DNA from: Thermodesulfobacteriota bacterium
GTDB lineage: Bacteria > Desulfobacterota > Desulfobaccia > Desulfobaccales > 0-14-0-80-60-11
Assembly (NCBI GenBank): GCA_049322355.1
Contig: JBMORG010000001.1
Span: forward strand, 19,410-83,409
Reading direction: 5' to 3'
Length of the DNA stretch: 64,000 nt
A model generated the notes under the pieces. It was given only the letters and a program-made list of their open reading frames with translations. It did not search any database and was not told the DNA's origin. Both the position numbers and the translations under genes were made by a program. Shown here piece after piece: positions 33,547-63,968 of this stretch (position 1 is its first letter; every line of letters begins with the position of its first letter).

Positions 33547-33685
33547 GCAAATATCATTTCAAACCGTTTTTTACCTTCCCATGACTATCCTTTTAATTAC
33601 TAAAAAATCTTGACAAATGGCATTGTTATGAATATCTTTTGGTCTAAGATGTTTCCCTATGTCCCTTGCGCTGCCAGGTTAAAAA

Positions 33686-33710
33686 TGCTACCCCAGTTGC
33701 TACCCCAGAA
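33686..33710. repeat. Left copy of the 25-bp direct repeat (tandem TGCTACCCCA motifs), candidate att or arm site
   Basis: tgctaccccaGttgctaccccagaa lies 18 bp upstream of the int2 start. Its partner at 63944-63968 differs at one base. Confidence 0.6.
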
Positions 33711-33727
33711 ATTGGAGAGGCGACCAG

Positions 33728-34948
33728 ATGAAAAAATTCACCGATAAGAAGATCCAAAATCTCAAGCCCAAAGCCCAGCGGTATGAAGAATGGGAAGGAA
33801 ATGGCTTTGGAGTCCGGGTTTCTCCCAAGGGGATAAAGAGCTTCGTTTTTATCTATAGATTTGAGGGGAAACCCCGGAGACTTACTCTGGGAAACTATCC
33901 AACCATGACTTTGGCAGATGCCCACGAGGCCCATGCCAAGGCCGTAAAGAAGTTGGAGAAGGGAATTGACCCAGGAGCCGAGACTGTGTCTGAACGTCAG
34001 GAGGAACGCAAAGCTCCCACTGTGGCACACTTGGTTGAGGAGTACATGGAGAAGTGGGCCAAAACAAGAAAACGTAGCTGGAAAGAAGATGACCGTATCC
34101 TAAAAAAGGATGTGCTTCCGACATGGGGCCACCGCAAAGCCAAAGAGATTAGCAGGCGCGATGTTATTCGGCTACTCGATGACATTTTTGACCGTGGTGC
34201 CGGCATCATGGCAAACCGAACTTTAGCGGTTGTTCGCAAGATGTTTAACTTCGCCGTAAGCCGAGATATTGTGTCTGTTTCCCCCTGCTTGGCTGTCCGC
34301 GCACCGGCACCTGAGCAACGTCGGGATCGGGTTTTGACCACAGATGAAATTCGAGCTCTTTGGCAAGGTTTGGCTGGCGCTAAGATGATGGCAGAGGGAA
34401 CCAAATTGGCCATAAAACTGCAATTGGTGACTGCACAAAGAAAGGCCGAAATCGTCAGTGCGGCCTGGGATGAAATTGATTTGACCGAAAAATGGTGGAC
34501 TATCCCGCCCGAGAAGGCCAAGAATAAGATGGCACATAGAGTTCCTCTATCTCCCCTGGCTTTGGAGCTTCTGGAGAGGGCTAAAGATTTTTCGGGCAAT
34601 TCATCATGGGTTTTTCCTTCACCCCGCACAGACCGGCATATTACCCCGGAAGCCGTTGATCATGCACTGCGGCGCCCTGGCCTGAATGCCTTAGGTTTCT
34701 CTTTTGTACCTCATGATTTGAGAAGAACTGCGGCTAGTCACATGACCGGGATGGGTATATCCCGGCTGGTAGTTAGCAAAATACTCAACCATATTGAGCG
34801 CGGTGTAACAGCCGTATACGACCGCCATAGTTATGATCGGGAAAAGCGTCAAGCCTTGGAATCCTGGGGCTCCAAGCTTAAGTCTATCATTGAAGATGCT
34901 GAGATAAAGGTGATCCCGATGGTTCGTGGCGGTCTTATTAAGAGCTGA
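33728..34948 (+). CDS. int: Tyrosine integrase, P4/CP4-57 type (element 2)
   Basis: The N-terminal arm-binding-type domain is KKIQNLKPKAQRYEEWEGNGFGVRVSPKGIKSFVFIYRFEGKPRRLTLGNYP. Catalytic TAQRKAEIV..., HDLRRTAASHM and LNHIERGVTAVYDRH are present. Confidence 0.9.
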   Translation: MKKFTDKKIQNLKPKAQRYEEWEGNGFGVRVSPKGIKSFVFIYRFEGKPRRLTLGNYPTMTLADAHEAHAKAVKKLEKGIDPGAETVSERQEERKAPTVAHLVEEYMEKWAKTRKRSWKEDDRILKKDVLPTWGHRKAKEISRRDVIRLLDDIFDRGAGIMANRTLAVVRKMFNFAVSRDIVSVSPCLAVRAPAPEQRRDRVLTTDEIRALWQGLAGAKMMAEGTKLAIKLQLVTAQRKAEIVSAAWDEIDLTEKWWTIPPEKAKNKMAHRVPLSPLALELLERAKDFSGNSSWVFPSPRTDRHITPEAVDHALRRPGLNALGFSFVPHDLRRTAASHMTGMGISRLVVSKILNHIERGVTAVYDRHSYDREKRQALESWGSKLKSIIEDAEIKVIPMVRGGLIKS

Positions 34949-35035
34949 GCCTGCCCATCCACTCCAAGCCGATCGCCAGGGAGACCTCATTACGTTGGGC
35001 AGGATGCTTTCTGGGGATCATAAGATGAGGTAAGT

Positions 35036-35734
35036 ATGTCCCATAAAACAAAAAATCTTTTCCATCAGCGCAAAAAGGGCGAGCCCATTACCTATGATGG
35101 GAACATCGAACCCATACCCTTTCCGCTGGGAAGCCGGGAAGGGCCGAACGCTCTCACATTAAAAATTACCGCCTCCCCAGAAGACTGGCAGACCCTTTTC
35201 CTCTTGGCGGAAGCAGATCCGGAGCATCTTGGCAAGTTGATCAAATTTTACATTACCAACCCTATCTATGAGCATTATCTTACCAAGGAAGAAATTAATC
35301 AAACTCGCGGAGTTCACGATATTGCTGAGCGAAATTTCATGGACAGGGCCCGAAGGTATGCAGTGGCTACCTATACCGTTCTCTCACAATGGGCTAAGGG
35401 CCCCATGGCAAGCTGGCCAGAATATTTGCAAGCTTTAATTCGAGAAGCGGAAAAAACCATGGGCAAGGAAAATGTCTGGCCTCCCGAAAAGGAGGCGCCA
35501 GATGTTATTACTATGGTGAGGTGTCTGATAGCCTTAAAATACGGGAACCAGATTAAACAGTTTCGGCTTACTGAACCGGAGTTTATGGACAATGAAGTCT
35601 TCCGTAAAACTTATCTTGATAAGAACAAGTTAAAAGCAGCAAAATTTTATATACAGGAATATGGAGATAAGATGACTGTTGAGTGGTTATTTGACATTCT
35701 ACCAGAATTTCCTTGGGTAGCAGAGGATGAGTAA
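35036..35734 (+). CDS. Hypothetical protein
   Basis: ORF with RBS gaggt before the ATG, followed by a strong terminator. No recognisable motif. Confidence 0.5.
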   Translation: MSHKTKNLFHQRKKGEPITYDGNIEPIPFPLGSREGPNALTLKITASPEDWQTLFLLAEADPEHLGKLIKFYITNPIYEHYLTKEEINQTRGVHDIAERNFMDRARRYAVATYTVLSQWAKGPMASWPEYLQALIREAEKTMGKENVWPPEKEAPDVITMVRCLIALKYGNQIKQFRLTEPEFMDNEVFRKTYLDKNKLKAAKFYIQEYGDKMTVEWLFDILPEFPWVAEDE

Positions 35735-35778
35735 TGTAACTTAGACATTCTAAAACAATAAGTCTTGGGCATCAGAAA

Positions 35779-35941: not shown

Positions 35942-36181
35942 ATGAGTAATTTAATATGGCGAGAACCTAAAGTCAAGGAAGAAACTGGTCTCTCAAAATC
36001 AACGAGATGGCGGCTTATGAAAGCCGGCCTTTTTCCTCAAAAGATTCAGCTTGGCCCCCGAGCTGTTGGATGGCGGGCTGAAGAAGTCATCGAATGGTGC
36101 CGGACCAGGCAAGAAGCAAAGGCCGAACCTGTGGCGAAGAAGAATCCCGACTCAACCGAAAATCAAGAGCTCCTGGCGTAG
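35942..36181 (+). CDS. alpA: AlpA-family phage/island transcriptional regulator (HTH)
   Basis: The ATG at 35942 is preceded by aataaggag. KVKEETGLSKSTRWRLMKAGLFPQKIQLGPRAVGWRAEEVIEWC is the typical AlpA/Phage_AlpA motif. Confidence 0.8.
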   Translation: MSNLIWREPKVKEETGLSKSTRWRLMKAGLFPQKIQLGPRAVGWRAEEVIEWCRTRQEAKAEPVAKKNPDSTENQELLA

Positions 36182-36206: not shown

Positions 36207-36962
36207 ATGGCTTGGTCCGATGCTTGTAAGTTAGAAGCGGTGGCGCAGATTGATAAAAGAAAGGAAAAACTTGGATCGGTTCGCGCCGCCATTAGAGAAA
36301 TTTCTGAAGAAAGCGGAATCCCTCAAAACACGCTTAAAAGATGGAAGTACCCCGAGACAGATTATAAGTGTACCAGAAATGGTACACCCTATCCCTCAAC
36401 AGAAAGTGAAACCTGCGCCACTTACCCCCTTTACACCCAGGACTTTGACTCTGGCCGTAAAAAGCTGGTGTATGGGGTTTGTGAAAGCCATGGTAACCGG
36501 CTTTTTACGATAAAGGAATATCGGGTGACACGAGATGGCAAGGAAGTCGCTACCAGGAATCGGCTCATCTTACCCTTGGATCTCTTCTGCCAGTTCCTGG
36601 TCCATTCAGTAATGATTAAAGAGGAACTCTCAGGAAAATCTGAGGCTGATAGTCCAGGCTACAATGAGGACGAAGTAGGGCCACCGGATGGTGAAAATGC
36701 AAGTGTTTCGCTGGGCGATGCAATTGGACCCGAAAACGAGGCCACGGAAATATCTCCTAAACCAGCCGATAGCGCCGAAGACACCGCTGTTGAGGCTGAA
36801 CTTGTCCAATGTGCCGATTGTTTGCATTTTGCCGCGAAGAAATGGGCCCCCGAAGAGAATGGGGCTTGCAATGCAAGATCAGGTCCTTGGAATGGGAAGA
36901 TTTTCCAGCCGCCTTATGTGCCGCATATTTGTCCAAACTTCCAAGACAAACACTCCGAGTAG
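36207..36962 (+). CDS. Hypothetical protein (Cys-rich C-terminus)
   Basis: The ATG at 36207 avoids overlap with alpA. The C-terminal CADCLHF...CNARSG...HICPNF suggests metal binding. Confidence 0.45.
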   Translation: MAWSDACKLEAVAQIDKRKEKLGSVRAAIREISEESGIPQNTLKRWKYPETDYKCTRNGTPYPSTESETCATYPLYTQDFDSGRKKLVYGVCESHGNRLFTIKEYRVTRDGKEVATRNRLILPLDLFCQFLVHSVMIKEELSGKSEADSPGYNEDEVGPPDGENASVSLGDAIGPENEATEISPKPADSAEDTAVEAELVQCADCLHFAAKKWAPEENGACNARSGPWNGKIFQPPYVPHICPNFQDKHSE

Positions 36963-36971
36963 GATACGGAT

Positions 36972-39494
36972 ATGAATGATTCCCCTTTTCTCGAACGTTT
37001 GGCTGACCGCCTTCGGGCAAGCGATTATAAAAGTCCTCGCTTCAAAGATAACGGCCAGTATATGTCCAATTTGATTTGTCCGGAATGCGGGGATCCCTCT
37101 GCCTGGGCGTATTCCAATGCGCCGTGGTCAATCAATTGTAACCGGCTTAATAAATGCGGCACCAGAACAAAGACCTTAGACCTTTTTCCCGAGCTAATCA
37201 GCAACGTTGAGAAGGAATACACCCCCGAGGACGAAAACCGGCCCGCAACGATCTACTTGCAAAGAAGAGGTCTGAATAAATCCTTGAAGGGGCTGAAATA
37301 CCGCTACATGGCCAACTTGCGAGGCCTCAGCGGCGGCGTTATGTTCCCGGTAGGCCAAGATGAGCATGGTCAGCCCATCTTTAATGGGCGGCTTTTCGAC
37401 CCTCCCCCGAAAGAGGCGAAAGGCCACAACATCGGTTCCACTTCCGGCATGTTTTGGAAACACCCTGGTATCACCTATCACCCAGAAGAGGAGACGTTTG
37501 TCACCGAAGGCATAATTGACGCCCTTTCCCTAATCGAAATCGATCGCCAGGCCATCGCTGTTCTCTCTTCTGGCCAGGACCCCACGAAACTGGACCTCGG
37601 GGAATTTTCCAAATTGGTAACCGCCTTCGATAAAGACGAGGCAGGGAAAAAAGCCGCACAACGCTGGCACAAGGCATTTAAAGGTAAAATTAAAACGATA
37701 ACTCCCATTAAAGGGGACTGGAATGATCTTTTGACCAGTCGGCCTAAAGAAGAGGCGAAGAAATACTTCGAAGAAAAGATAGAGGAATTTAGGGTCCGGG
37801 GAAAACTGGCACTCGCAAAAACCGCGGGAGAGTATGCCCAAATCTTCTGCGATTTTTACCGTCGCCTCCTCGGCCTATTTCCTTTTGAGAAGCAATACTA
37901 CTACTCACAGGAGAGGAATGGTCCTCATGGGCCTGTGCTAATAACCAATCGCGTCTCAAACTTCACGCTCGATGTTCGACACTTTCAGCTTGAAACCGTT
38001 AACCAGGAGGAGCCGGTCAATAGATTTTCCCTCGAAATTAAGCCGCGCAAAGGGCAATCGACAGCCTGTTCGGTTACTGCTGAGGAGATTGCATCGCCTC
38101 ACGGCCTGACGACCATGTTCCTCCAGCGCGCCAGGGTGCTATGGATGGGCGGCAAACCGGAATCGTTGGCCCTGGCTGAATTGATTGTCGAGTCCGGCGC
38201 TCCCGTTGTTCGGCAATTACAGGCAACTGGCTATGACTCGGAATCGGGATGCTATGTTTTCAAAACTTTCCTGATCACCCCCAAGGGGCAAATGCTGCTG
38301 CCTAACAACCACGGCTTTTTCGAGGCAACTCGTGCACTTTATATACGGCCTGCCCCTCACCCCACTTTGAGCCCGGTTAAGGGCATCGCACCCAAAGAAG
38401 TGTGGTGGTTGATTTCTCTGGCCTGGGGGGATAAGGGCGTGGTGGCCGTGGTGTGGGTAGTGGCGAGTTGGTTTGTGAATCAGATAAAGAAAAGAATCGG
38501 CTTCTTCCCGTTCGCATCATTACACAAGGACCCCCAAACTGGAAAAACCCGCCTTGTGAGGACCCTGAACGCAATGCAGGGTCTTGATGAAGAAGGTTTG
38601 CCGATGGTGAAGGTTAACACGAGTAAGGGCGAAGTCCGTCAACTGGCGCAACGGTCTGGCCTGTTCAAGGCCCTGCTGGAAGGCAACAACGCAGAAAAGA
38701 TGCGATTTGATATGGAGACGATCCTGCCCTTGTATAACTCGAACCCATTACAAATAACGGCCAAAAAAACACTCGACATCCAAACCAGGGATGTACCCTT
38801 CCTATCGTCACTCATGTTTGTCCAAAACGTAGAACAATTCAGGTCTCGGGCGCAGCGGGAACGAGTAATATCATTGAAATTCGAGAAAAAAGACCTCACT
38901 GTTGAAACTAAAAAGGCGCTGGATGACTTATTGAAAATACCATTGGCACAACTATCACATTTTTTCGTTGATGTAATGGCTCATCGAAACCAAATTGAGG
39001 ATGAATGGTATGACGAATTTAAACACTGCCAAGAAGAGTTATATGAGGCAATTCCTGATAACCGCCTGAATGAAAATTACGCTCTGATATTAGCATTTCA
39101 TCGGTTGTTATGCAAGATCATCGAAATTGAATATGATCTAAGGCCATATATTGAACAGCTTGGTAAAGAGAAGTATGAAGAATGTAACCGGAGAGATGAA
39201 ACAGTTGCTGATCACTTTTTTAACTTACTTCTTGGTCTCGATCACGATGAAAGGGACCAACAAGCATGTTATAGAACAATAGCAGAGAACAATCAGCTAT
39301 TTATTCATATAGGCAAGGCATTAAAGAGGATTGACGATGCTGGATACCGCTTTACCGTGCAACTGAAGGACCTGCATGCATCGTTAAAAGAGCACCCTTC
39401 CTTTATTAAGAGCAATGACGGTCGGCAGCTGGGTGGAACGTATCAAAAGGGTTGGCTCTTTGACTATGAAAAGATTGTCACTGATGAGGGGTAA
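36972..39494 (+). CDS. Toprim-domain DNA primase / replication initiator of element 2
   Basis: Zn ribbon CPECGDPSAWAY...CNRLNKCG. Toprim motifs FVTEGIIDALSL and VTAFDKDEAGKKAA. A large C-terminal domain of unknown type follows. The gene is immediately followed by iterons. Confidence 0.8.
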   Translation: MNDSPFLERLADRLRASDYKSPRFKDNGQYMSNLICPECGDPSAWAYSNAPWSINCNRLNKCGTRTKTLDLFPELISNVEKEYTPEDENRPATIYLQRRGLNKSLKGLKYRYMANLRGLSGGVMFPVGQDEHGQPIFNGRLFDPPPKEAKGHNIGSTSGMFWKHPGITYHPEEETFVTEGIIDALSLIEIDRQAIAVLSSGQDPTKLDLGEFSKLVTAFDKDEAGKKAAQRWHKAFKGKIKTITPIKGDWNDLLTSRPKEEAKKYFEEKIEEFRVRGKLALAKTAGEYAQIFCDFYRRLLGLFPFEKQYYYSQERNGPHGPVLITNRVSNFTLDVRHFQLETVNQEEPVNRFSLEIKPRKGQSTACSVTAEEIASPHGLTTMFLQRARVLWMGGKPESLALAELIVESGAPVVRQLQATGYDSESGCYVFKTFLITPKGQMLLPNNHGFFEATRALYIRPAPHPTLSPVKGIAPKEVWWLISLAWGDKGVVAVVWVVASWFVNQIKKRIGFFPFASLHKDPQTGKTRLVRTLNAMQGLDEEGLPMVKVNTSKGEVRQLAQRSGLFKALLEGNNAEKMRFDMETILPLYNSNPLQITAKKTLDIQTRDVPFLSSLMFVQNVEQFRSRAQRERVISLKFEKKDLTVETKKALDDLLKIPLAQLSHFFVDVMAHRNQIEDEWYDEFKHCQEELYEAIPDNRLNENYALILAFHRLLCKIIEIEYDLRPYIEQLGKEKYEECNRRDETVADHFFNLLLGLDHDERDQQACYRTIAENNQLFIHIGKALKRIDDAGYRFTVQLKDLHASLKEHPSFIKSNDGRQLGGTYQKGWLFDYEKIVTDEG

Positions 39495-39790
39495 GGTTTC
39501 AGAGGTTTCACCAAGGTTTCATATAAGGTTTCAGTGAATAACCAGTATTTATCTATATCTTATATATATTGAAACCTCTGAAACCTCTAAAACTATATAT
39601 CAATTTATAGGGGTGACATAGATCAATGACAACCGGATATGAAAAAATTCTTGACCTGATGCACAGGAAAAACAAAATTTCCGATTCGAGGTTTCAGAGG
39701 TTTCACGGCAACTTAATTAGTTGTTATAATTCAGAAAAGAATGAAACCTCTCCCGAAACCTCAGAGGTTTCACCCGAAGTTTCAGCGGCT
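39495..39790. repeat. Iteron-type replication origin candidate: 12 GGTTTCA/TGAAACC heptamers around an AT-rich core
   Basis: Direct copies lie at 39495, 39504, 39515 and 39527. The AT-rich tract accagtatttatctatatcttatatatat spans 39541-39569. Inverted copies lie at 39570 and 39579. Further copies lie at 39690, 39699, 39742, 39754 (degenerate), 39766 and 39778 (degenerate). The 13-mer TCAGAGGTTTCAC occurs three times. Confidence 0.7.
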
Positions 39791-40594
39791 GCGCCCCCCA
39801 TTTCCTCCTCTTTAATTCCCGAAATCCAAGCCTGGATCGCCAGCGTCGTCGAGCTCGCCCTAATCGGGAAGCTGACCGAGGCCGTAGCGCTCTCCGTAAA
39901 ACCGGCATTTCAGTCAATCTTGGGTGAAGGTCCGGTGTGGTTCTGCCCGGACCAGGTGACTGCCGACAGTAAGGCCCCTGACTTGGCTTTTACCGGCGAA
40001 GAACTAGCTGTGGTCATCCCGCTCTTACACCACGGGGATCGGCAACTTGCGGAGGCGGTGGTCATGGCAAAGAGAATCCTGGGAGGGACCATCATGGTCT
40101 CTTCTTTAGACCCGGAAGCAGCGCAGCCTTCCGATGACCTGGCGGTTTTGAGTTCGCAGGAAGAGGCAAAGGATGATGGCAGCACAGGCCAGCAAAAGGG
40201 CGGGGTGAGTCAGTCAACCCCAGAGGGACTCGCCAGCCCCGGCCGGCATCTGGTGAAAATTTCCAAGGTGCTCTGCTACCTGCATAATTTTCCTGAATAC
40301 ACAGGCCCCAGAGCCCGCCTAGAGATGGAAATTCTCGAAGGTCCCGATACCGGTAAAACCATCGTCGATAACATCTCTTTGCCGCACCCGCAGGAACCAC
40401 CGGGCAGGAAGAAGCGCCGGATCGAAATTGCTTACCGCCTTGGCCTGATCCCGCATGGGGCAAGGGGTACCGTCAAGATAGATTGGAATTGCTTGGAAGG
40501 CAAAATCGGTCTGGCGCATTACGGTTATAAAACCATTTCCGGGCGTGTATTCCCCACGGTGGAGTGGGAAAAATATGAACACAAGGAGAGTTGA
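39626..40594 (+). CDS. Hypothetical protein; the 5' ~160 nt overlaps iterons, so the true start may be downstream
   Basis: A long ORF with no recognisable motif. The N-terminal peptide (RFQRFHG, ETSPETSEVSPEVS) is dictated by the repeat DNA. Confidence 0.4.
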   Translation: MTTGYEKILDLMHRKNKISDSRFQRFHGNLISCYNSEKNETSPETSEVSPEVSAAAPPISSSLIPEIQAWIASVVELALIGKLTEAVALSVKPAFQSILGEGPVWFCPDQVTADSKAPDLAFTGEELAVVIPLLHHGDRQLAEAVVMAKRILGGTIMVSSLDPEAAQPSDDLAVLSSQEEAKDDGSTGQQKGGVSQSTPEGLASPGRHLVKISKVLCYLHNFPEYTGPRARLEMEILEGPDTGKTIVDNISLPHPQEPPGRKKRRIEIAYRLGLIPHGARGTVKIDWNCLEGKIGLAHYGYKTISGRVFPTVEWEKYEHKES

Positions 40595-40595: not shown

Positions 40596-40844
40596 ATGGA
40601 TACTACTGACTGGAATGACCCAATGGTAAAGGAAGTTTTGAAGCGGATGGACATCAGGAAGGAATTTGAACGATGGGGCGGCAAAATCCTGCCAGGCGCA
40701 GAGCCTAATTCTAAAGGCTGGATTGAAAGCGAGGCTATGTTTAATCAGGGTTATAGGGCTTTTATTAATATTGGCAACGGGCCAGATCGGGGAGCGTACG
40801 TTGAATTTCCTCCCGACGATTTCCCGGATAAATTGGACGGCTGA
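40596..40844 (+). CDS. Hypothetical small protein
   Basis: The ATG at 40596 is preceded by aaggagag. Confidence 0.4.
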   Translation: MDTTDWNDPMVKEVLKRMDIRKEFERWGGKILPGAEPNSKGWIESEAMFNQGYRAFINIGNGPDRGAYVEFPPDDFPDKLDG

Positions 40845-40881: not shown

Positions 40882-41337
40882 ATGACATATAAAGACGATG
40901 ATTCGAGAATGTCGCCTCGCGAGCTGAAATTCCTGGAGCATTATTTCTCAGGCTCCACGATGAAGGACGCCGTTAAAGCTGCAGGCTATAGAGGGGCAAG
41001 TGCCCCGGCACTTTGTAACACTGGGAGAGCGATTTTGACAAGATATGAGCAAAACACAAGCGCTCAGGAAATATTTCGCCGGGTAGGGGCCAGTGAGACC
41101 CGGATCGCCCAGCTTCTTCTGAATCTGGCCGAAAACGCGGAGTCTGAGGGCACACGAGTCCATGCACTGGGTATTCTGTCGAAATGTATGGGCCTGCAGC
41201 GGGAATCGAATGAACCCGTCCGGGGTGCAAAGATTATTATTTCAGGTCCTGATCTACCAAATGAGCCCGGCCCACCTCCTAACACAGGCCAGATGACTCA
41301 TCTTAAACAAACAACTCCTCTTAAGATTACGAGATGA
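40882..41337 (+). CDS. terS: Phage terminase small subunit-like protein (Terminase_2 type)
   Basis: The ATG at 40882 is preceded by aaagggaga. MSPRELKFLEHYFSGSTMKDAVKAAGYRGASAPALCNTGRAIL matches the LxPxxxxFxxxY...A...AGY...A...G pattern of small terminases. Confidence 0.65.
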   Translation: MTYKDDDSRMSPRELKFLEHYFSGSTMKDAVKAAGYRGASAPALCNTGRAILTRYEQNTSAQEIFRRVGASETRIAQLLLNLAENAESEGTRVHALGILSKCMGLQRESNEPVRGAKIIISGPDLPNEPGPPPNTGQMTHLKQTTPLKITR

Positions 41338-41437: not shown

Positions 41438-41866
41438 ATGACCAAATTTTCGGCAAAAAAACAGCTTAAAGGCAAGCCCCGTGGAAGACCGTTTCCGCCA
41501 GGTGTATCTGGTAACCCACGGGGCAGACCGAAAGGCAGGTTGAACAAAAGCAGCCTTTCTGTGCTGGAGGGGGTCGAAAAGGCGCTGGCGAAGATTAAAC
41601 GGGCTGAAGAAGAGCGGGCCAAGCCCCTGATTCTGGACAAAACGCGGCATTTTGAAGCCTGGTCAGACTGTTACATCCAAGATGGCATGCGGTTCCGCAA
41701 GGACAACTTGGAACGGGTAAACCCCAACGGCGACATCCCCCTCCGACCGAAGCGGTTAAATATAAGGGAGAATAGGCAGGCGGTGCTTTGGGGAGGGCGC
41801 AGATATTGGAGTCAATATGGCTGGTTGTTCGATCCATCCACATGGAAAGCAGTGAATCCTGATTAG
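41438..41866 (+). CDS. DUF5681-like phage-associated protein
   Basis: N-terminal GKPRGRPFPPGVSGNPRGRPKGRLNK (the GNPxGRPKG motif). Confidence 0.5.
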   Translation: MTKFSAKKQLKGKPRGRPFPPGVSGNPRGRPKGRLNKSSLSVLEGVEKALAKIKRAEEERAKPLILDKTRHFEAWSDCYIQDGMRFRKDNLERVNPNGDIPLRPKRLNIRENRQAVLWGGRRYWSQYGWLFDPSTWKAVNPD

Positions 41867-43569: not shown

Positions 43570-43621
43570 TTGCAACGACGAGCATGGAACCTGAAATTAC
43601 CTAAGGGGTTGTCACGGAAAT

Positions 43622-57397: not shown

Positions 57398-60300
57398 TCA
57401 AGCTCCGGCAGGCGGGAATTTCCATTGCCGCGAGTCTGTGGACTGGTTTTGGGTATTAGTTTTTCGCTGCAAGAATACATCAATGTCTTTAATCTCAAAA
57501 AAGGCTATCGCTGCTTGGTCTTGCCCATGTAAATGAATAATTTGTCTATCGAAAGGTTTTTTATAAGGTGCGTAGGCATTACTACCGCCATACTTGCCGT
57601 TATTTGCAACAATGACCATCTGAAACATATGATAGTGCAAGGCCATCGCCATATTGTCAAAAGTGTTTACATCTTTATTCATCGCTGGAACAGCGAAAAT
57701 ATCCGAGCGATTCCGTAAATCAGCAGCGAGTGTGATATCCGTAGCGTCGTAACAGATGGAAGCTGTGAGCCATAATGGCCGGGTTTGATCTCGACTACAC
57801 CATTCATAACCTACTAACCACTGGCATGGTCTAAAACTTTGGATGACTTGTCCTCGTCCCGATCTATTCGACTCCACCTCCTCTTGGGCGAGGTGGTACT
57901 TGCCTTGTTCGCGAATATAAATCCGTAAACCATGTGTTTCGGACCATGCCGGAATTACCCAAAGTGCCGAGTTTACTAAAGGTGGCTGACCCGCCAAGAG
58001 TTCTTTATAGGTTAATCCCACTGTAATTATTGCCTTATGTGCACGAGCGAAAGGTACAAGATGCGTTGGGATGTCTTTTGGATGGACGGAAAGCTCTGGT
58101 AAAATTAACCAATCAAGGCGCCTTCCAAGCGTCTTGTGTGTCTCTCGGAGTGTCAACAATCTCTCGATTGCAACCAACGTTGCCGATAGATGATTGCGGT
58201 GGCGTCTGCGGATATTCGGGCCTGGTAGAGTGAGGTCTGCCGGGGGTTTGAATTCATCATCGGTTGGAATTACGGTTTGGGCAACGCATACCCTCAAAGG
58301 CCGGTCCACATCAGTCTTGTCGAGTCGGGGTGCTTCAAGATTGAGCATCAATACATGGCTTGATCTTCCCACGATTATCTTTTTAAAAAATTTATCAATG
58401 AGGTCTCGTGTTCTCTTAATTCCATCGCGAACATACTCAACGATCTCGGATACCTCGGAGTTTCGACAACCAGGCCAATGGAGCAAGGCGAATAGAAGTT
58501 GTTCAGTCCAGTACGAGATTGGTAACCAGTAATCACCGAAAGCGGAATGCTCGTTAAGCAGACCGTAGAGTCTTTGATACCAATGGCTGCAAGGAGCCCG
58601 ATATATTGCCATTTCTTCTTTCCAATGAGGCAACCGTACCACCAGCGTGAAGTCTTGCCGAGCCGTCAGAATGAACCTCATAAGATACCCGAGTTGTAAA
58701 CGCCAGCGTTCTTCAGGCGGGCACCACGACGGTGGTCGGTACATCGATCCCTTGGGATCGACTCGACTTGGAACTATCTCAATTTCATCGACTGTGGACA
58801 ACGGGTCGTTTAAATCTGAGAGCCTGACATAAATGTCTGATGGAGTGACAACCTCGTTATCGTTGAATTCGGGCCATTTTTCTAAAAGCTTTATTGCGAA
58901 TGAGATAATCGCAACTTCATTTCGGAGTTGGTTCTTTGGACCTTTTTGAAGTACCAAATCCGCGAGTGTTGACCACTGATCCTCCTTAACTTTTTTTTCT
59001 AAACATAAGTCACTGCGAACTCTCGGAGAGACCTCTACGGACAGCTCAGGTTTTGATTCAAGGATTTCAATTACAAAAGAGGGGTCTCGTTCTGCAATTT
59101 GGTTCAAAAGATGAGGGGTTATATTTTGTTCAATTAGTTTGATCGCTGCCTTTTGGTCAAGAAATGATCGTCGCGACAAAGTAGACAAGGTGGCAAAATC
59201 AGCATTGTTTAAGCCATCACTTTCACCACTTAAGAAATTAATTAATTCAATGTAATGTTTGGTCTCAGAATCATGTTCCGCGCGAAGGATTGATACTTGC
59301 GTGGGATTGTTTGCAGCGAGGAACAAAAGAACTTGCTGCCTAAGATACCACGGCAGAGTAATGGCAGGCAGTGAAAGGAGTCGCTTAGCTTCTTCCAAAA
59401 GAACTGAACGATAATCCGCAAGTTTTATTCCATTTGGAAGAGATGAATTGTCATCAACAAATCCTGTTTCGGTGGCGCCTGCACGGAAAATCTCGGATAA
59501 ACAGTACCAAGCTACGCGGCAGAGAGCCTTGCGGGGCGCACCAGTTTCGGTAAAAGGCCTCAACAAGTTCAAAACATTTTCTAGAACATCCTTAGCAGGC
59601 CAAAGGTCCAGCCCGATGCGAAGAAGACGCACATTAGACGGATCTTCAACCCATGTCTCTATGAGTCCAAGGGCGAATGCTTTTACTTCTTCATCAAGAT
59701 CAGCTTGGGTGCGAAGCGACCCGAAATTATCTGTCCGACATGCATCAGGCTCTTTTTCGAGTTGTTCTTTTTTGGGGCCACAGTCCTCTAAAAGTGGTCT
59801 AAGTGAACGATAAGTACTTCTGAATCGTCCTGCTGCGAAACGTGCAACTGTCTCATCTCGAACGTCCGGAATTGGAGAGAAAGCCCATCCATTTTCCTTC
59901 AAACGTTCCTCAGAATAGCGCCGCTGGGACCGTATCAACCCCTGGATAGAATATAGGATATCTTGCCCAGCGACGGCATCGAATCCCCCGGAGATCGCGC
60001 CCTGTATGCGCTTCATCTTTTTGCTTTGCATCAAAATTGGAGGCTCGTCAACACCAAATGCAGCAGCTTTGGTCTTATCCTTGGATACTTTTAACCCACC
60101 CGCATGGATGTCCAGTAATTCCTGAAGCCAACCGACAATATTCTTCTCAAGGTCAGGGAAGTGAATGGCTTGATCAACCGTCAATACGATTCGAAGATCA
60201 TCAACATAACGACAAACATCTATTACTCTGATGCCAGTTTCGATCTCTTGCGTTATAAATTTCCTCAACCCTTGATCGAAGTCAAGGAGGGAGATGTTCG

Positions 60301-61171
60301 CGAAAAATCCCGCAGAAACAAGACCTTGTGGCAGTGCAACTTTCGAGAAATCCCCAAGGTCCTCTGCAGATGCATACCTCATTACTTCATTCTTGTCTTT
60401 CGCATGCCAGGTCCAAGACAAAAGCCTTTTGACAAAATCATAAAATCCTGGATCGTCATCTGTTGTTTTTAAGGCTTCAATTTTCTCATTCAGCAGGGCT
60501 GGCCGAACCCTGTCGTAGAACTGGCTTAAATCCGAATACACAATCGTGACTCGAGTTCCTGGGGAATTGTTGACAGCCTCAGCCCGACCAACAAATTCCG
60601 GTCTCTCAAGGAATTTTTGGTAATCCTGAAAATAGGCGCGGTAGAGCTTTCCCGAACCCCATCGGTGATGTAATGTTCCGTCACAGCTTTTGTCACAAAA
60701 AAGGCGGTTTCCATAGGAAATAACCTTGTATCTATCGGTGGCTTCTTTAATTGAGGAGCTTGGATCTCCCTGGATTGTTTCTGTCCGATCAGCAAGGCAC
60801 AACATAACAGCAGTAGCGGCAACTTGATCCTTAAGGCTCACATGGGCCAACGGACGGAGTTTTACGGAGTTTTCTCTCTTCTTTGCTGGCTTCGGCTTCC
60901 ATTCGTTTGTTTGAGGATTAACAAGCCACTGTTGGCTCTTTGGGGCAGGCACAAGCCGGATTGGGTCATTTAACCATTGTTCGGGAGTCATTAGCTCTTC
61001 GGCCAAATCGGCAAGGAATTGCCGGAGGTTAACCGTAGCTCGATCTAACTCGAGGGTGTCAGAGTACCAGTTATGGTTACGGATATATGAGGAGGTCTTC
61101 TTCCATGCCTGTATGAGGACCTCTTCCCGGCACAGGTTCTCAAGGCGAGGAAGGAGGAATTCATCATCCAT
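57398..61171 (-). CDS. Reverse transcriptase fused to a C-terminal nitrilase (CN-hydrolase) domain; DRT type 1 / UG1-like defence RT
   Basis: RT motifs are SDLSQFYDRV (A), LPQGLVSAGFFANI (B) and RYVDDLRIV (C; the YVDD codons at 60197-60208 were verified). The nitrilase triad context is LRVCVAQT..., WLILPELSVHP and SICYDATD (Cys codon at 57752-57754). Confidence 0.8.
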   Translation of the reverse strand: MDDEFLLPRLENLCREEVLIQAWKKTSSYIRNHNWYSDTLELDRATVNLRQFLADLAEELMTPEQWLNDPIRLVPAPKSQQWLVNPQTNEWKPKPAKKRENSVKLRPLAHVSLKDQVAATAVMLCLADRTETIQGDPSSSIKEATDRYKVISYGNRLFCDKSCDGTLHHRWGSGKLYRAYFQDYQKFLERPEFVGRAEAVNNSPGTRVTIVYSDLSQFYDRVRPALLNEKIEALKTTDDDPGFYDFVKRLLSWTWHAKDKNEVMRYASAEDLGDFSKVALPQGLVSAGFFANISLLDFDQGLRKFITQEIETGIRVIDVCRYVDDLRIVLTVDQAIHFPDLEKNIVGWLQELLDIHAGGLKVSKDKTKAAAFGVDEPPILMQSKKMKRIQGAISGGFDAVAGQDILYSIQGLIRSQRRYSEERLKENGWAFSPIPDVRDETVARFAAGRFRSTYRSLRPLLEDCGPKKEQLEKEPDACRTDNFGSLRTQADLDEEVKAFALGLIETWVEDPSNVRLLRIGLDLWPAKDVLENVLNLLRPFTETGAPRKALCRVAWYCLSEIFRAGATETGFVDDNSSLPNGIKLADYRSVLLEEAKRLLSLPAITLPWYLRQQVLLFLAANNPTQVSILRAEHDSETKHYIELINFLSGESDGLNNADFATLSTLSRRSFLDQKAAIKLIEQNITPHLLNQIAERDPSFVIEILESKPELSVEVSPRVRSDLCLEKKVKEDQWSTLADLVLQKGPKNQLRNEVAIISFAIKLLEKWPEFNDNEVVTPSDIYVRLSDLNDPLSTVDEIEIVPSRVDPKGSMYRPPSWCPPEERWRLQLGYLMRFILTARQDFTLVVRLPHWKEEMAIYRAPCSHWYQRLYGLLNEHSAFGDYWLPISYWTEQLLFALLHWPGCRNSEVSEIVEYVRDGIKRTRDLIDKFFKKIIVGRSSHVLMLNLEAPRLDKTDVDRPLRVCVAQTVIPTDDEFKPPADLTLPGPNIRRRHRNHLSATLVAIERLLTLRETHKTLGRRLDWLILPELSVHPKDIPTHLVPFARAHKAIITVGLTYKELLAGQPPLVNSALWVIPAWSETHGLRIYIREQGKYHLAQEEVESNRSGRGQVIQSFRPCQWLVGYEWCSRDQTRPLWLTASICYDATDITLAADLRNRSDIFAVPAMNKDVNTFDNMAMALHYHMFQMVIVANNGKYGGSNAYAPYKKPFDRQIIHLHGQDQAAIAFFEIKDIDVFLQRKTNTQNQSTDSRQWKFPPAGA

Positions 61172-61765
61172 AATAAAGAGGCTCTTCGAAAATTTCTTTC
61201 GGAATTTAAAAATCCAAATGCATAGGTTCTATGATTTATTTTTCTAACCAAATTTTCTTGTCAAGGCATGCTATCATAAAATTGGTCCCAGCGGGGGGAT
61301 ATCTGTCAGGAACTCTCCCAGACAAAAAGGAATAAATTGATTGTTGGGCGCGGTGTCCGGATCAAGCATATACGGGGAGGGGGAGTCCCAGTCCCCGTTT
61401 TCGAGTTTTTCTTCTTCCTAATATATTGCGTATTTTTGAACACCTTAGTGGGCACTGGGTAGTTAGCATCAGCCCTTTGCCATTGCCCTGGCCCCCGACG
61501 CAAGTGGCGGCGCCGGGCAGTCAGTCAAGGCTAAGGGTTCTTTTGGGGGGAGGGTAAGGTCAGGGGCCGAGGGAGATCGTCTCCTTGGGTTCTGAGGATG
61601 CGGTGCATCCAAATTTATGTAAACGTATTTTGTTGCCGAAACCATGTTTCTCGATCAATTTATAAGGACTTAGCTTAAGAAACTGAAGTTTTTGGGATTT
61701 TTCCGGGCAAAGAGGCTCCAAAAAAGTTGTATAGAAGAGAGAAATTCAGACATATACAATACAGA

Positions 61766-62932
61766 TCATGGCTTTATGTCCACTCCTGGAGGCCTTATGT
61801 CTTTTCTATACGTTATATCACGGATATATTCGCGGTTTATTCCAATAAGTTCCACCTTCTTCCCATAAGTTAAGTCTCTAAAAAAATCAGATTTTTGTGC
61901 TTCTACAATATTGGCTACAAATATAGTTTCATTTGTCTCATTAATTAAAATGACTGGTCCAGTCTCAATGCATGGCGCAGATTGCGTTTCATGGTTATTA
62001 GAAAATTTTTTCATTATTTTCTCTGGCATTTCTCTATGGCAGTATAAATTTACTATTGGTGCAGTACTATAATCTGCTCCACCTTTTTCAATAGGGATAT
62101 ATGGATAAAAGAATACCGCAAAGGTATGTATACTAAAAATATAAAGAATAAAAACCATAGAAAATGAAATAGCTGTAGCGAAACTCTTAAACCCTTTTGA
62201 AACACTATGCTCTGCAATAAACATATCGACAATCTTGTATATTATAATTCCAAGTAAAAAGATAATTAATAAAAAATTATAACCATATCTACAAAATACC
62301 ATCGTATACAATTTTTTAAACATAGCTGGAAATACATTAATATTAACTATAGTACAAATTACCATTATTTGTAGCGCAAATATTGTTATGCAGAAAGCAC
62401 AGTTTGCCCTACTAAGGAAATCATCTTTATTAACTATTTTAAAGTTATGTAATAGGTCAATAATATTTCTCAGCATAAATATCATAAAAATGGGCACAAA
62501 ATTGAAACCAATTAAGATGGGGTTTGCCCTTAATTCACCGTGAACTGAATAAAAGGCAAATGAAAAAAAGGTAATGAGAGATAGAAATATTGTTATTAAT
62601 GAGCATCCGATTGTCCAAAAATAAATTATTCTGTCTTCTCCCCAAAAAATACCAAAAAGATTAATCCTTTTTTTATTTTCATTACATACTTTTAGAAAAT
62701 AGAAAAAAATAATCCAAGGAACAAGTAATATAATTACTAATATTGAGTAAATAGTGCCTATATGAATATATTTCAACTTAATAAATGATCCTAAATCTAA
62801 TAGCCCTAACCTACTAAAATGTGTATATACGATTAAAAAACCAGAACCATAAACAAAAGCAACCAATAAAATAAACCACTTAGGGCCTTCAAACTTAATC
62901 CCGCTTAAATGATCTTCCATAAGCCGCCTCAC
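61766..62932 (-). CDS. Orphan polytopic membrane protein (about 8-9 TM helices plus a ~100-aa soluble C-terminal domain), extremely AT-rich
   Basis: Hydrophobic helices run throughout (FILLVAFVYGSGFLIVY, IYSILVIILLVPWIIFFYF, LITIFLSLITFFSFAFY and others). No recognisable catalytic motif. Confidence 0.55.
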   Translation of the reverse strand: MRRLMEDHLSGIKFEGPKWFILLVAFVYGSGFLIVYTHFSRLGLLDLGSFIKLKYIHIGTIYSILVIILLVPWIIFFYFLKVCNENKKRINLFGIFWGEDRIIYFWTIGCSLITIFLSLITFFSFAFYSVHGELRANPILIGFNFVPIFMIFMLRNIIDLLHNFKIVNKDDFLSRANCAFCITIFALQIMVICTIVNINVFPAMFKKLYTMVFCRYGYNFLLIIFLLGIIIYKIVDMFIAEHSVSKGFKSFATAISFSMVFILYIFSIHTFAVFFYPYIPIEKGGADYSTAPIVNLYCHREMPEKIMKKFSNNHETQSAPCIETGPVILINETNETIFVANIVEAQKSDFFRDLTYGKKVELIGINREYIRDITYRKDIRPPGVDIKP

Positions 62933-63474
62933 ACGAGGAATGAATTATTACAAGTAGCAGATTTATGCAAAGAATCTAAAACGAGTTACTATATAACTTA
63001 GCGTAATCACAAAAAATACTCTCGTTTTATGGTGGAGCTTTCAGCCAGAGAGGAGGATAGCATAAATTTTAAATGATTTATAATAAATGAAACATCAAAT
63101 ATAATTTTTTCAAAATTTTATTCCTAAACCGACCTTCACCCGCTCTACTCCCCGACCGAAAAATCGAAAAATTCCCAGACCGATCATATTAACCAGGGGG
63201 GAGTAGGAGTCCCGTCTCCGGTTTTTACTCTGGGGTGGGAAGAAAGGGATGTAAGGGAGGGGGCTGGGGTCTGAGTAGACAGGGGTAAGTCAATCCATTC
63301 TCCCCTTGTTGGCCGGCGGCGGAAAGGGGACCGTTGTGGGGGTGGCATGAGAAGCCAGGACTGCAGGACCGAATGGACAGGAAAAGATTGGGGAGGGGCA
63401 CCGGACAAAGCGGTAAAGGTGCGATCTTAATATGAAGGGATCTTTCGATCCCTGATCCCCATCAATAATAATCT

Positions 63475-63685
63475 TTAATCCCTGCCCGGAGGTTTCCGAG
63501 TTTCAACGGTAAAGGCTTTGATGAGGTTGTCCAGGTCGTTGGGTTAAACAGGGTGCGCCGTCCAATTTTTGCGTAAGGGATTCGGCGCCGGCTAACCCAC
63601 CCCGCAATGAGTATTTACTGATTCCCAGACGCTGGGCTGCCTCGTCAACGGTGAGCAAGCCCTTGGGCATTTCCTTTTGCACCAA
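63475..63685 (-). pseudogene. Decayed excisionase-family HTH gene (two frameshifts)
   Basis: Frame 1 reads MPKGLLTVDEAAQRLGISKYSLRG. A second frame reads WVSRRRIPYAKIGRRTLFNP. A third frame reads DLDNLIKAFTVETRKPPGRD-stop. Spliced together, the three pieces recreate a typical excisionase HTH like the intact one at 27882. Confidence 0.55.
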
Positions 63686-63943
63686 ATCGTTTTCTCATTG
63701 CCGGACTTGCCCCGCGCACATCTGAGTCCGCTCCAAAGCAATCACTAACCGATCAATGAGTTCCACAAATTTTGGATTCACCTTGCACAACCAAAGGGTC
63801 TAATCAGTTTCCAAATTATCTCTCCTTGCGTGAGCTTATGTACCCGTGATTTGGCCGGTGATACCCCAAGCTGCTACCCCAATAATTTTTTGTTAAGGCT
63901 TGTGATATGGGAGGTCCTGTCAAAGCTCTACCAGAGGCAATTT

Positions 63944-63968
63944 TGCTACCCCAATTGCTACCCCAGAA
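63944..63968. repeat. Right copy of the 25-bp direct repeat (tandem TGCTACCCCA motifs), candidate att or arm site
   Basis: tgctaccccaAttgctaccccagaa. Extra related motifs lie at 63860-63881 (gataccccaag ctgctacccca). Confidence 0.6.

Follow-up and report, generated by a model that had tools for sequence, protein, structure and literature searches.

The 64-kb stretch of DNA analysed here, which we call the window, comes from the MAG of an uncultured Thermodesulfobacteriota bacterium, a relative of sulfate reducers, and raises the question of whether its integrase, replication and defence genes form one mobile unit and, if so, of what kind. We think it probable that window positions 33546 to ~64040 are a single integrative element of ~30.5 kb, and, judging from gene content and order, we favour to a similar degree the reading that this element is a putative satellite resembling phage-inducible chromosomal islands (PICIs) and loaded with defence cargo. 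Within a discrete integrated unit, genes encoding integrase, AlpA and primase, a replication origin and packaging-like genes follow one another in the absence of virion genes (Table 1), and the order int, alpA, pri-rep, terS agrees with the published definition of PICIs. A preliminary description of this DNA had reported that capsid, portal, tail and large-terminase (TerL) genes are lacking, which was borne out: no ORF matched any of them in Pfam, PHROGs, PADLOC or NCBIfam profile searches.

Table 1. Features of the element and its junctions, in window coordinates.
Feature	Position	Strand	Evidence
49-nt 3' fragment of tRNA-Thr(CGT), anticodon stem to CCA; left junction	33497-33545	-	sequence reading
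Sigma-70-like promoter upstream of int (TTGACA, 17 nt, TATCTT)	33610-33638	+	
Left 25-bp repeat: two GCTACCCCA 9-mers 12 bp apart, between int promoter and start codon	33686-33710	+	
Tyrosine integrase, P4 type	33728-34948	+	Arm-DNA-bind_3, Phage_int_M, Phage_integrase
Hypothetical, 232 aa	35036-35734	+	
AlpA-family regulator/excisionase	35942-36181	+	PF05930 E 1e-15; phrog_2790
Hypothetical, 251 aa	36207-36962	+	gene call
Toprim primase/replicase, 840 aa	36972-39494	+	Toprim_2/3; phrog_1139
Replication origin: ~12 copies of 9-bp iteron (A/G)AGGTTTCA, both orientations	39494-39794	.	
Hypothetical, 311 aa	39659-40594	+	
Hypothetical, 82 aa	40596-40844	+	
TerS-like protein, 151 aa: N-terminal HTH, then helical core	40882-41337	+	remote homology
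DUF5681-like protein, 142 aa: R/G-rich N-terminal motif, long helix, small beta domain	41438-41866	+	
Type I restriction-modification (RM) cluster	42055-51476	+	
HsdM	42055-43569	+	
GmrSD_N/DUF262 protein, weak HEPN-like C-terminus	43622-45853	+	
HsdM-HsdS fusion	45850-48504	+	
HsdR	48501-51476	+	
1897-aa SF1 helicase (AAA_11/AAA_12) with MTES_1575/DUF559 nuclease domain	51570-57263	+	
Drt1a: UG1 reverse transcriptase, nitrilase-like C-terminal domain	57398-61171	-	PADLOC 1288 bits; RVT_1
384-aa multi-pass membrane protein, ~36% GC, upstream of drt1a	61766-62920	-	
Conserved non-coding segment, right end of element	63140-63260	+	nhmmer and alignment with L010, L048, L059, L049
Frameshifted HTH_17 (excisionase-family) pseudogene	63503-63685	-	
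Right-end motif cluster: single GCTACCCCA at 63873, pair at 63945/63957	63873-63968	+	
Degenerate copy of GGGGTTAGC...GCTAACCCC hairpin, ahead of right tRNA-Thr copy	63976-64000	.	

Where the element ends had been answered by a 25-bp direct repeat said to bracket it, with a circular junction predicted between 63968 and 33686. The repeat exists and is identical at 24 of 25 positions, but its copies are set in from the junctions, by 140 bp on the left and by 43 bp on the right (63944-63968, containing the right-hand 9-mer pair), so it does not bracket the unit. We ruled it out as the attachment site, which leaves the predicted junction unsupported; the real ends are the tRNA-Thr 3' fragment on the left, unique in the window, and, on the right, another copy of the tRNA just outside the window. 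ARAGORN found no complete tRNA in the window. The 3' end of the second, fuller tRNA-Thr copy is at window-equivalent 64011, 11 bases beyond the window; from there the copy extends into the D-arm, and we read it as far as base 64069. The two copies share an identical 19-bp core, CCTGCTGATTACGAATCAG, which is the anticodon stem-loop, and mismatch at five T-arm positions, which would be expected of copies with different origins. This comparison places the att core in the anticodon stem-loop (33527-33545 and 64041-64059), with the predicted crossover inside the 19 bp. The attP junction would then read ...CCCCCGGCCTGCTGATTACGAATCAG followed directly by GGCAAATATC..., and the island-free junction ...CCCTCGACCTGCTGATTACGAATCAG followed directly by CTGCTCTACC....

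One public Logan contig covers exactly 33516-64069. Its left end lies 30 bases ahead of the left junction, the branch point of a k=31 assembly graph given a coexisting island-free allele. Only at the left is the coincidence exact (the right end is off by one base), and another tRNA-Thr gene with the same 30-mer would explain the contig end equally well.

The arrangement of the ends recurs in relatives. A hairpin before the tRNA is found in the same layout at four junctions, counting those of the island and of relatives, and the distance from the second 9-mer to the tRNA 3' end is 44-46 nt at four junctions. GCTACCCCA is enriched in the window (six copies against 0.4 expected) and occurs at both island ends. 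Three relatives (L008, L015 and L044), whose integrase homologues are 60-75% identical, carry another 9-mer, GGTAGCCCA, twice and also 12 bp apart at the same place upstream of int, and keep the TTGACA of the int promoter in position. The GCTACCCCA pairs are probably arm-type sites for Int or operator sites. L044 is also inserted at tRNA-Thr, with an identical junction base. Because the left flank of our element is a second, unrelated integrative element (element A), the tRNA-Thr locus carries a tandem array of integrative elements; L015 and L044 likewise have tandem neighbours. The preliminary description had missed this tandem element on the left flank at the same tRNA.

What does the core module encode? 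The gene order given earlier stood for int, alpA, the Toprim primase, the iteron origin and the DUF5681-like gene; its small terminase is recognisable by remote homology only. In the primase, Pfam Toprim_2/3 matches residues 176-257 and phrog_1139, 'DNA primase', spans residues 351-781 (E 1e-81). The iteron array begins at the primase stop codon and flanks an AT-rich core (39535-39620) on either side; all seven exact GAGGTTTCA copies in the window fall in 39502-39772, with 0.78 expected. Neither the 232-aa protein (Pfam, PHROGs, PADLOC, NCBIfam) nor the 251-aa protein (Pfam, PHROGs, NCBIfam) matched any family in the searches named. The same was true of the 311-aa protein in Pfam and PHROGs; its residues 58-149 are similar to the N-terminal region of PolA-type replicases in L007 and L011. 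The 82-aa gene is also conserved in L008, upstream of its TerS-like gene.

The small terminase announced at 40882 has no direct match in Pfam (blank even at E<=10), PHROGs or NCBIfam. In a PDB profile search, however, the top three matches are SPP1-like TerS proteins (E 0.007-0.018), and the best Foldseek match is the TerS 3zqq (E 0.087). Terminase_2 is matched by 12 of 112 remote homologues (best E 7e-8), more than any other Pfam family (the next has four members); other remote homologues match generic HTH families. Its identity as TerS, suggested by E values of 0.007-0.09 and transitive matches, is therefore a remote assignment and weaker than had been stated. The DUF5681-like protein scores 26.0 bits, slightly below the Pfam cut-off of 27.5, and the majority of its close homologues contain PF18932. 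TerL is immediately preceded by a gene with the DUF5681 motif in at least 10 of 16 IMG/VR loci and, where sequence is available, followed by portal; our protein has only its N-terminal 30-60 residues in common with these phage proteins, and its C-terminal domain matched no fold in PDB or BFVD. The two genes stand side by side in unchanged order in eight independent contexts besides the window. The pair is not obligatory: ~12 relatives lack the TerS-like gene but have the DUF5681-like one, and four show the reverse.

Downstream of this module, 42-63 kb had been described as holding defence genes only. The RM cluster, the helicase-nuclease and Drt1a fit that description, but the stretch also holds a membrane protein of 384 aa that matched no family in Pfam, PADLOC or PHROGs, two ~590-bp non-coding gaps and the HTH_17 pseudogene (PF12728 E 1e-11 once the frameshift is repaired). 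The helicase-nuclease is a candidate defence protein (PADLOC PDC-S37 E 2e-65; Hhe, MkoA and MkoC weaker), and the membrane protein is a possible partner of Drt1a. The conserved segment near the right end shows no convincing RNA structure and no Rfam match. It follows directly after the DUF5681-like gene in relatives without cargo there (L010, L048, L059); in L049 the two are separated by 6.9 kb of cargo, and here by ~21 kb. By this alignment the segment marks the far side of a cargo slot, which appears family-wide and extends from the DUF5681-like gene to the segment. Several relatives hold defence genes in the same slot, at least four with identifiable systems, in keeping with the earlier claim of a defence cargo downstream of the module: BREX (L007), DpdE/F-like helicases (L011) and a type IIG RM enzyme (L013) come directly after it, as do a methyltransferase (L003) and HsdM (L036, L037, L050).

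These relatives come from delta-proteobacterial MAGs and metagenomes, and more than ten have the same compact layout without virion genes. Five types of replicase stand beside the packaging-like genes: Prim-Pol, PolA, NrS-1-like/DUF5906, zinc-finger primase and Toprim. Close relatives are nearly absent from IMG/VR (two weak TerS-like and two primase matches, on short contigs), and no match to the element was found among cultured phages. The suggestion that the host might belong to an uncultured lineage proved apt, and no paper in the literature we searched links phage satellites with Desulfobacterota.

Compared to known systems, the element is closest in layout to Gram-negative PICIs such as EcCICFT073: int, alpA, primase-replicase, iteron origin and a small-terminase-like gene lie on the same strand, tail, holin, portal and TerL are lacking, and accessory or defence genes follow the terS position. 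Unlike those PICIs, it lacks a capsid-morphogenesis gene, has an extra DUF5681-like gene and a TerS that can be identified by remote homology only, and comes from a phylum not known to have described satellites. At 30.5 kb it is longer than every PICI delimited by SatelliteFinder (median 9.5 kb, maximum 28 kb). With thresholds like those of Pfam/PHROGs, it would probably count only three PICI components, that is, SatelliteFinder 'Type C', a class that the program's authors call ambiguous. It shares with P4-like satellites a P4-type integrase with an arm-binding domain, AlpA, tRNA insertion and a defence hotspot; however, the 'P4-like' label given earlier is not supported, as no homologue of Psu, Delta, Sid, epsilon or P4-alpha was found and the primase has no detectable D5-type helicase domain of P4-alpha. 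PICMIs of Vibrionaceae likewise have a minimal core of int, alpA and primase, lack a capsid-remodelling gene, are expected to use headful packaging into full-size capsids and have a defence hotspot downstream of the primase side, but they insert next to fis, have no terS-like gene and are much smaller, at one-eighth of a ~49-kb helper genome, whereas our element occupies a tRNA and carries two genes of packaging-like type. Tycheposons of marine cyanobacteria, both PICI-like and cargo-carrying, resemble it, by their description, in having tyrosine recombinases that target tRNAs, ends marked by full and partial tRNAs, tandem arrays from successive integrations and a modular make-up in which xis, primase/helicase, terS and cargo are combined. 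They differ in that terS-like genes and large cargo, joined here, are described as separate types, and our element has a P4-type integrase and cargo for defence rather than nutrient uptake.

Does the element need a helper phage at all? It could instead be an integrative defence island that excises and replicates by itself through its integrase, AlpA, primase and origin and travels by transformation, vesicles, conjugative mobilisation, or lateral or generalised transduction, with the TerS-like and DUF5681-like proteins acting as ordinary DNA-binding regulators. We consider this less likely, though it is the rival we take most seriously. The remoteness of the TerS assignment, the homologues matching generic HTH families, the C-terminal domain without a fold match, the dispensable pairing and the scarcity of relatives in viral contig collections all favour it, as do published reports that cargo-carrying tycheposons are not found in viral fractions and that lateral transduction can move defence islands that are not satellites. 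Against this, Terminase_2 is by far the commonest family among the remote homologues, small terminases head both the PDB sequence and Foldseek matches, and in at least 10 of the 16 phage contigs it is the gene upstream of TerL that bears the DUF5681 motif. Both genes also close the core module in constant position and order despite replicase swaps, like terS in PICIs, and profile searches of the element found no conjugation genes, relaxase or coupling protein.

It is improbable that the locus is a composite, in which an ~8-kb core adjoins remains of other elements or chromosomal defence genes piled up at the tRNA, and the 42-63 kb genes no longer move with the core. The uneven GC of the cargo (59% at 46-48 kb, 36% at 61-63 kb), the opposite-strand excisionase-type pseudogene near the right end and the tandem elements at this and related loci point that way. 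Yet the stretch from 33546 to 64010 contains neither a tRNA fragment nor a hairpin nor a second integrase, the pair beside the right-hand tRNA matches the pair at the element's own integrase promoter and no other 9-mer, and the right-end segment belongs to the core in cargo-less relatives, with L049 repeating the order core, cargo, segment. A decayed prophage that lost its structural genes seems very improbable: an integrase, a primase, small terminase-like genes and one pseudogene would suit it, but not even fragments of genes for TerL, portal, capsid, tail or lysis were found in the element, the virion-free layout is common to more than ten relatives, and the element has an intact set of core genes and clear-cut ends.

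How would a satellite of this kind move? The island brings its own tRNA 3' part together with a terminator-like hairpin, which presumably leaves the tRNA whole at the right end; the displaced 49-nt fragment stays behind at the left. The P4-type integrase may bind the GCTACCCCA pairs in both arms and, given the position of the left pair between promoter and start codon of int, binding there could also autoregulate int. AlpA may be an activator or excision factor and, as such standard genes suggest, the Toprim primase would fire the adjacent iteron origin. The TerS-like and DUF5681-like proteins would divert TerL and capsids of a headful-packaging helper phage to island DNA, and this helper would possess its own gene order DUF5681, TerL (Terminase_6N), portal. 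No capsid-remodelling gene is evident in the element, so packaging would use full-size heads, which would tolerate the 21-kb cargo. The cargo would shield the host, and with it the island, against phages other than the helper.

The ends of the island, which the preliminary description had placed at 33547-63968, can be set from two copies of the 3' part of a tRNA-Thr gene. On the minus strand, 33497-33545 is the final 49 nt of tRNA-Thr(CGT): it begins on the 3' flank of the anticodon stem, ends with CCA and lacks the 5' half; ARAGORN found no complete tRNA within the window. A public assembly contig that spans the island with identical genes (the Logan contig) extends 69 bases past the window end, and in it a second copy begins at window-equivalent 64011 and runs into the D-arm (GGTAGAGCAGC), visible to 64069. 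Because it reaches the D-arm, this copy is fuller than the left one, and it is probably the intact gene. The two copies share an exact 19-bp identity (CCTGCTGATTACGAATCAG, 33527-45 and 64041-59), which is the anticodon stem-loop, and differ at five T-arm positions. Such a pattern is expected of an element that crosses over in the anticodon loop and imports its own tRNA 3' end, and it places the mobile unit at about 33546-64040, or about 30.5 kb. The predicted island-free junction would read ...GAACCCTCGACCTGCTGATTACGAATCAG joined to CTGCTCTACC..., and the circular or concatemer attP junction ...GAACCCCCGGCCTGCTGATTACGAATCAG joined to GGCAAATATC.... The Logan contig corresponds to 33516-64069. 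It starts exactly 30 bases ahead of the first base that is specific to the island, a hint that a k=31 assembly graph broke there from another continuation, such as an island-free allele. At the right the contig misses the equivalent prediction by one base, and a tRNA sequence in common would in any case break the graph.

A 25-bp direct repeat (33686-33710 and 63944-63968) had been proposed as the bracket of the unit. The repeat exists and is identical at 24 of 25 positions, but we rejected it as the att core, since it is internal to both ends and since relatives swap the 9-mer pair that composes it yet keep the tRNA-derived core. Each 25-mer consists of two GCTACCCCA 9-mers at a spacing of 12 bp, with an extra single copy at 63873; the 9-mer occurs six times in the window versus 0.4 expected. 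We compared the junctions of the window with those of three related loci (L008, L015 and L044) whose integrases are 60-75% identical to that of the island. All four share one layout. Outermost is a 9-mer pair, followed by a GGGGTTAGC...GCTAACCCC hairpin and then a tRNA 3' fragment; going inward come a conserved arm, a TTGACA promoter, another 9-mer pair, a ribosome-binding site and the start codon of int. In the three relatives, two copies of GGTAGCCCA replace the two of GCTACCCCA, spaced by 12 bp throughout. L008 and L015 are sited in tRNA-Lys(CTT), and L044 in tRNA-Thr with the junction base as in the island. At the four junctions with an outside pair, the distance from the second 9-mer to the tRNA 3' end is 44-46 nt, and it stays in this range with 9-mers of four related or different sequences and with tRNAs of two kinds. 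The 9-mer at the right end of the island is the one at its own int promoter. From these sequence patterns we infer that the 9-mer pairs are arm-type integrase sites, of which the left pair could also serve as an operator, and the hairpin would be a putative terminator brought by the element for the rebuilt tRNA. Flanking direct repeats were not found in three further relatives (L039, L045 and L049).

Directly to the left of the island, at the same tRNA, lies a second and unrelated integrative element (element A, about 23-33.5 kb; 23500-33496), and the window from 1 to 22.8 kb is chromosomal, with a polysaccharide cluster, LysR and TetR regulators and a radical-SAM enzyme. The right end of element A carries AGTCACACACA twice, at 33428 and 33440 (12 bp apart), then a hairpin and the tRNA fragment. 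This is the layout of the island's right end, and the locus is thus a tandem array. The pair overlaps the final codons of the element A integrase (...SHTQSHTQ, then stop), with a perfect terminator-like hairpin next (33428-33488); since the layout equals that of the island, the C-terminal peptide repeat may have a DNA-level reason. Neither a third tRNA-Thr fragment marking the left end of element A nor TerS-like or DUF5681-like genes within it were found. The island adjoins the tRNA gene, and in tandem arrays the slot beside the tRNA is that of the most recent arrival. Tandem neighbours are also present in L015 and L044, which are unrelated metagenome or MAG loci, so that stacking at tRNA genes seems common for such elements. 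In both, a foreign 9-mer pair and hairpin precede the tRNA fragment that lies left of the integrase (L015 3890-3960, GCTACCCCAGCTGTTACCCC; L044 2515-2585, CTAGCCAAA twice). Two patches of the window have a low GC content (35-37% versus about 50% elsewhere): 5000-8000, inside a glycosyltransferase/O-antigen-type cluster, and 23000-26000, where element A presumably has its left edge.

ORF listing and family searches bore out the earlier map of the left module, with int, alpA and a primase in that order (see table). Zero matches to the four hypothetical proteins of the core were obtained in Pfam, PHROGs and NCBIfam, a capsid-morphogenesis gene was not found among them, and an NCBIfam scan of the core proteins added nothing new. 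The proposed origin also stood: all seven exact GAGGTTTCA copies of the 64-kb window fall within 39502-39772, where 0.78 were expected, and no shuffle reached seven. Including one-base variants, about 12 iterons in both orientations flank an AT-rich core (39535-39620), and the array starts at the stop codon of the primase.

Features of the island, of element A to its left and of related loci, with positions in the window unless another locus is named.
Feature	Locus	Position	Match or remark
ImmA/IrrE-type peptidase	Element A		Peptidase_M78
IS transposase	Element A	26280-27398	minus strand
Primase-helicase	Element A	28121-30826	DUF927/Toprim/HTH_56
HTH_17 gene	Element A	about 32206
Different tyrosine integrase	Element A	32372-33454	ends 43 bp before the tRNA fragment
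int promoter	Island	33610-33638	TTGACA
Tyrosine integrase, P4-type architecture	Island	33728-34948	Arm-DNA-bind_3 (PF13356), Phage_int_M (PF22022), Phage_integrase (PF00589)
232-aa protein	Island	35036-35734	no family match
AlpA	Island	35942-36181	PF05930, E 1e-15
251-aa protein	Island	36207-36962	no family match
Toprim primase, 840 aa	Island	36972-39494	phrog_1139, E 1e-81
311-aa protein	Island	39659-40594	no family match
82-aa protein	Island	40596-40844	no family match
TerS-like protein, 151 aa (earlier named TerS)	Island	40882-41337	remote homology
DUF5681-like protein, 142 aa	Island	41438-41866	26.0 bits versus a cut-off of 27.5
Right-end segment and following stretch	Island	63140-63440
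Right-end segment and following stretch	L010	6440-6740
Right-end segment and following stretch	L059	554-673
Right-end segment and following stretch	L049	17237-17340
Right-end segment and following stretch	L048	2979-3043
Example DUF5681-TerL locus (among L019-L032)	L026	9989-13941	Pfam DUF5681
Example DUF5681-TerL locus (among L019-L032)	L030	1826-5643	Pfam DUF5681

The label of small terminase given to the 151-aa protein was over-confident, although remote homology supports it. The protein had no direct match in Pfam, PHROGs or NCBIfam, even at E<=10 in Pfam. Its close family comprises 11 clusters, and the family profile, searched against PDB, returned SPP1-like small-terminase DNA-binding domains as its top three matches (E 0.007-0.018). 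In the AlphaFold model (pLDDT 68), long helices come after an N-terminal HTH; Foldseek ranked the SF6 small terminase 3zqq first (E 0.087) and placed two more small terminases in the top 25. An exhaustive profile search with the family gave 274 representatives, and among the 112 scanned against Pfam 12 matched Terminase_2 (best E 7e-8), three times the number for any other family. On these PDB profile, Foldseek and Terminase_2 matches we call the protein TerS-like with moderate confidence. The DUF5681-like protein belongs to a well-conserved family in which most members match PF18932. Its confident model (pLDDT 82) combines an N-terminus that is disordered and R/G-rich with a long helix and a small beta domain, with no relative of this fold in PDB or BFVD and no sequence match in PDB. 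The N-terminal motif also occurs in IMG/VR phage contigs, with an overlap of 30-60 residues, and in at least 10 of 16 such contigs the motif gene is the one just upstream of TerL (Terminase_6N), and wherever the contig is long enough TerL is followed by a portal of P22 or SU10 type. The slot directly upstream of TerL is the usual small-terminase position, and from gene position DUF5681 may be an unrecognised small-terminase class. Neither protein matched cultured phage genomes.

Relatives of the module were drawn from delta-proteobacterial MAGs and metagenomes. Besides the window, eight independent contexts have the TerS-like gene and the DUF5681-like gene side by side in the order seen here; the DUF5681-like gene occurs without the TerS-like gene in about 12 contexts and the reverse in four. 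The neighbouring replicase varies, from the Toprim primase of the island to Prim-Pol/DUF3987, PolA, NrS-1-like/DUF5906 and a zinc-finger primase. Defence genes often lie downstream of the module in these relatives: BREX (L007), DpdE/DpdF-like helicases (L011), a type IIG RM enzyme (L013), a methyltransferase (L003) and HsdM (L036, L037 and L050). A conserved stretch of non-coding DNA, about 100 nt long (window 63140-63260), marks the far edge of the cargo. In L010, L048 and L059, where the slot holds no cargo, it directly follows the DUF5681-like gene; in L049 it comes 6.9 kb later, behind the cargo and adjoining a chromosomal enolase; and in the island it comes about 21 kb later. From these positions we conclude that cargo occupies a defined slot within the element. 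The core of the segment (...GACCGAAA..GAAAAAAT.TCCG...GATCATATTGACCAGGGGG..GGAGTCCC...) has a G-rich stretch after it, at the right end of the family members. Candidate roles for the segment are a pac site, a promoter and a regulatory RNA. An RNA structure was tried and rejected, as the consensus fold was weak and the covariation term unfavourable, and Rfam gave no match to the segment or across the whole island. Close to this edge, at 63503-63685 (minus strand), an HTH_17 excisionase-type gene is frameshifted; with one frameshift removed it matches PF12728 (E 1e-11). The frameshift points either to a pseudogene or to a fault in the assembly, and the gene could be the remnant of an older element.

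That the cargo is of defence type was confirmed by family searches, which found restriction-modification, helicase-nuclease and Drt1a genes. The type I restriction-modification set is complete, with HsdM, an HsdM-HsdS fusion (two Methylase_S domains) and HsdR. Its make-up is unusual (42055-51476), in that a stand-alone HsdM accompanies a second HsdM fused to HsdS, and a 743-aa DUF262/GmrSD_N protein with a weak HEPN-like C-terminus is inserted between the two HsdM genes. An SF1 helicase of 1897 aa carries an MTES_1575 nuclease domain, with the candidate family PDC-S37 as its top PADLOC match. A DRT type 1 (UG1) system pairs the RT-nitrilase Drt1a with a partner, Drt1b. Here Drt1a, on the minus strand, scored 1288 bits in PADLOC; the 384-aa multi-pass membrane protein beside it matched no PADLOC model and no family. 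Between these two minus-strand genes is a 594-bp gap (61172-61765) with no convincing ORF and no Rfam match, a possible place for a promoter or a non-coding RNA of the DRT1 system.

How such an element relates to known satellites depends on the definition used. The SatelliteFinder definition of a PICI has five components (PMC10085698), the regulator among them being a homologue of AlpA, MerR or Stl, and with Pfam/PHROGs profiles we found three of them in the island: an integrase, the regulator AlpA, plus a primase-replicase with an adjacent ori. For TerS the matches were remote, and library searches found no capsid-morphogenesis gene, which is also missing from many accepted 'Type B' PICIs (PMC10085698). 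None of the components forbidden in a PICI (tail, holin, portal, head-tail connector) is present. Under Pfam/PHROGs-like profile thresholds the island would probably score as 'Type C', a class that the SatelliteFinder authors treat as ambiguous. At 30.5 kb it exceeds the largest PICI of their survey (median 9.5 kb, maximum 28 kb; PMC10085698), a size tolerable only if full-size heads are packaged; the related DUF5681-bearing phage contigs are 39-45 kb long. The earlier label 'P4-like' did not hold, as there is no match to Psu, Delta, Sid, epsilon (Ash) or the alpha primase-helicase and only integrase and AlpA are in common. Unlike cfPICIs, the island lacks its own capsid, portal, head-tail adaptor/connector and TerL. 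PICMIs lie next to fis with a three-gene core and no terS, whereas the island lies in tRNA-Thr with TerS-like and DUF5681-like genes. Functionally closest are the PICI-like tycheposons, which like it target tRNAs, have partial tRNAs, form tandem arrays and use modular replicases; the tandem stacking described for them matches the arrays at the island locus, L015 and L044.

Taken together, we consider it reasonably probable that the island is a PICI-like satellite, a reading that is plausible and strengthened by the family comparison but unproven. A decayed prophage is very improbable. The claim that virion genes are missing withstood our searches: zero ORFs matched capsid, portal, tail, lysis or TerL families (Pfam, PHROGs, PADLOC, NCBIfam), tblastn with TerL and portal seeds from the related phage contigs found nothing in the window, and holin and head-tail connector genes were not found there by Pfam, PHROGs, PADLOC or tblastn. 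That the island is itself a composite of stacked elements also seems improbable to us. It is unlikely, if less so, that it is a defence island independent of any helper. If it is not a satellite, it would be a cleanly delimited, tRNA-borne defence island of an ordinary kind.

Returning to the satellite reading, it is tempting to go further, and we tentatively entertain the possibility that the island is a cargo-laden member of an undescribed phage-satellite family of Desulfobacterota-type bacteria. This joint proposal has four traits: a packaging module centred on a DUF5681-type protein, which a divergent Terminase_2-like TerS may or may not accompany; freely exchanged replicases; tandem stacking in tRNA genes via a conserved arm (9-mer pair, terminator hairpin and tRNA 3' part); and a dedicated slot for defence cargo from the packaging genes to the conserved right-end segment. 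As a corollary, DUF5681 would be an unrecognised small terminase or terminase-specificity factor of phages with P22/SU10-type portals.

Defence-carrying phage satellites are well documented in enterobacteria, staphylococci and vibrios, and lineages of the sulfate-reducer type are known mostly via metagenomes. The island comes from an uncultured Thermodesulfobacteriota MAG, and the literature that we searched describes no satellites in this phylum. If the satellite family is real, it would offer a concrete route, defined at the level of sequence, for the spread of large sets of immune genes (three or four systems in 21 kb in this case) in anaerobic sediment and groundwater communities. The DUF5681-like and TerS-like genes would then be markers that current satellite finders would miss, and a Pfam domain of unknown function would gain a testable role in packaging.
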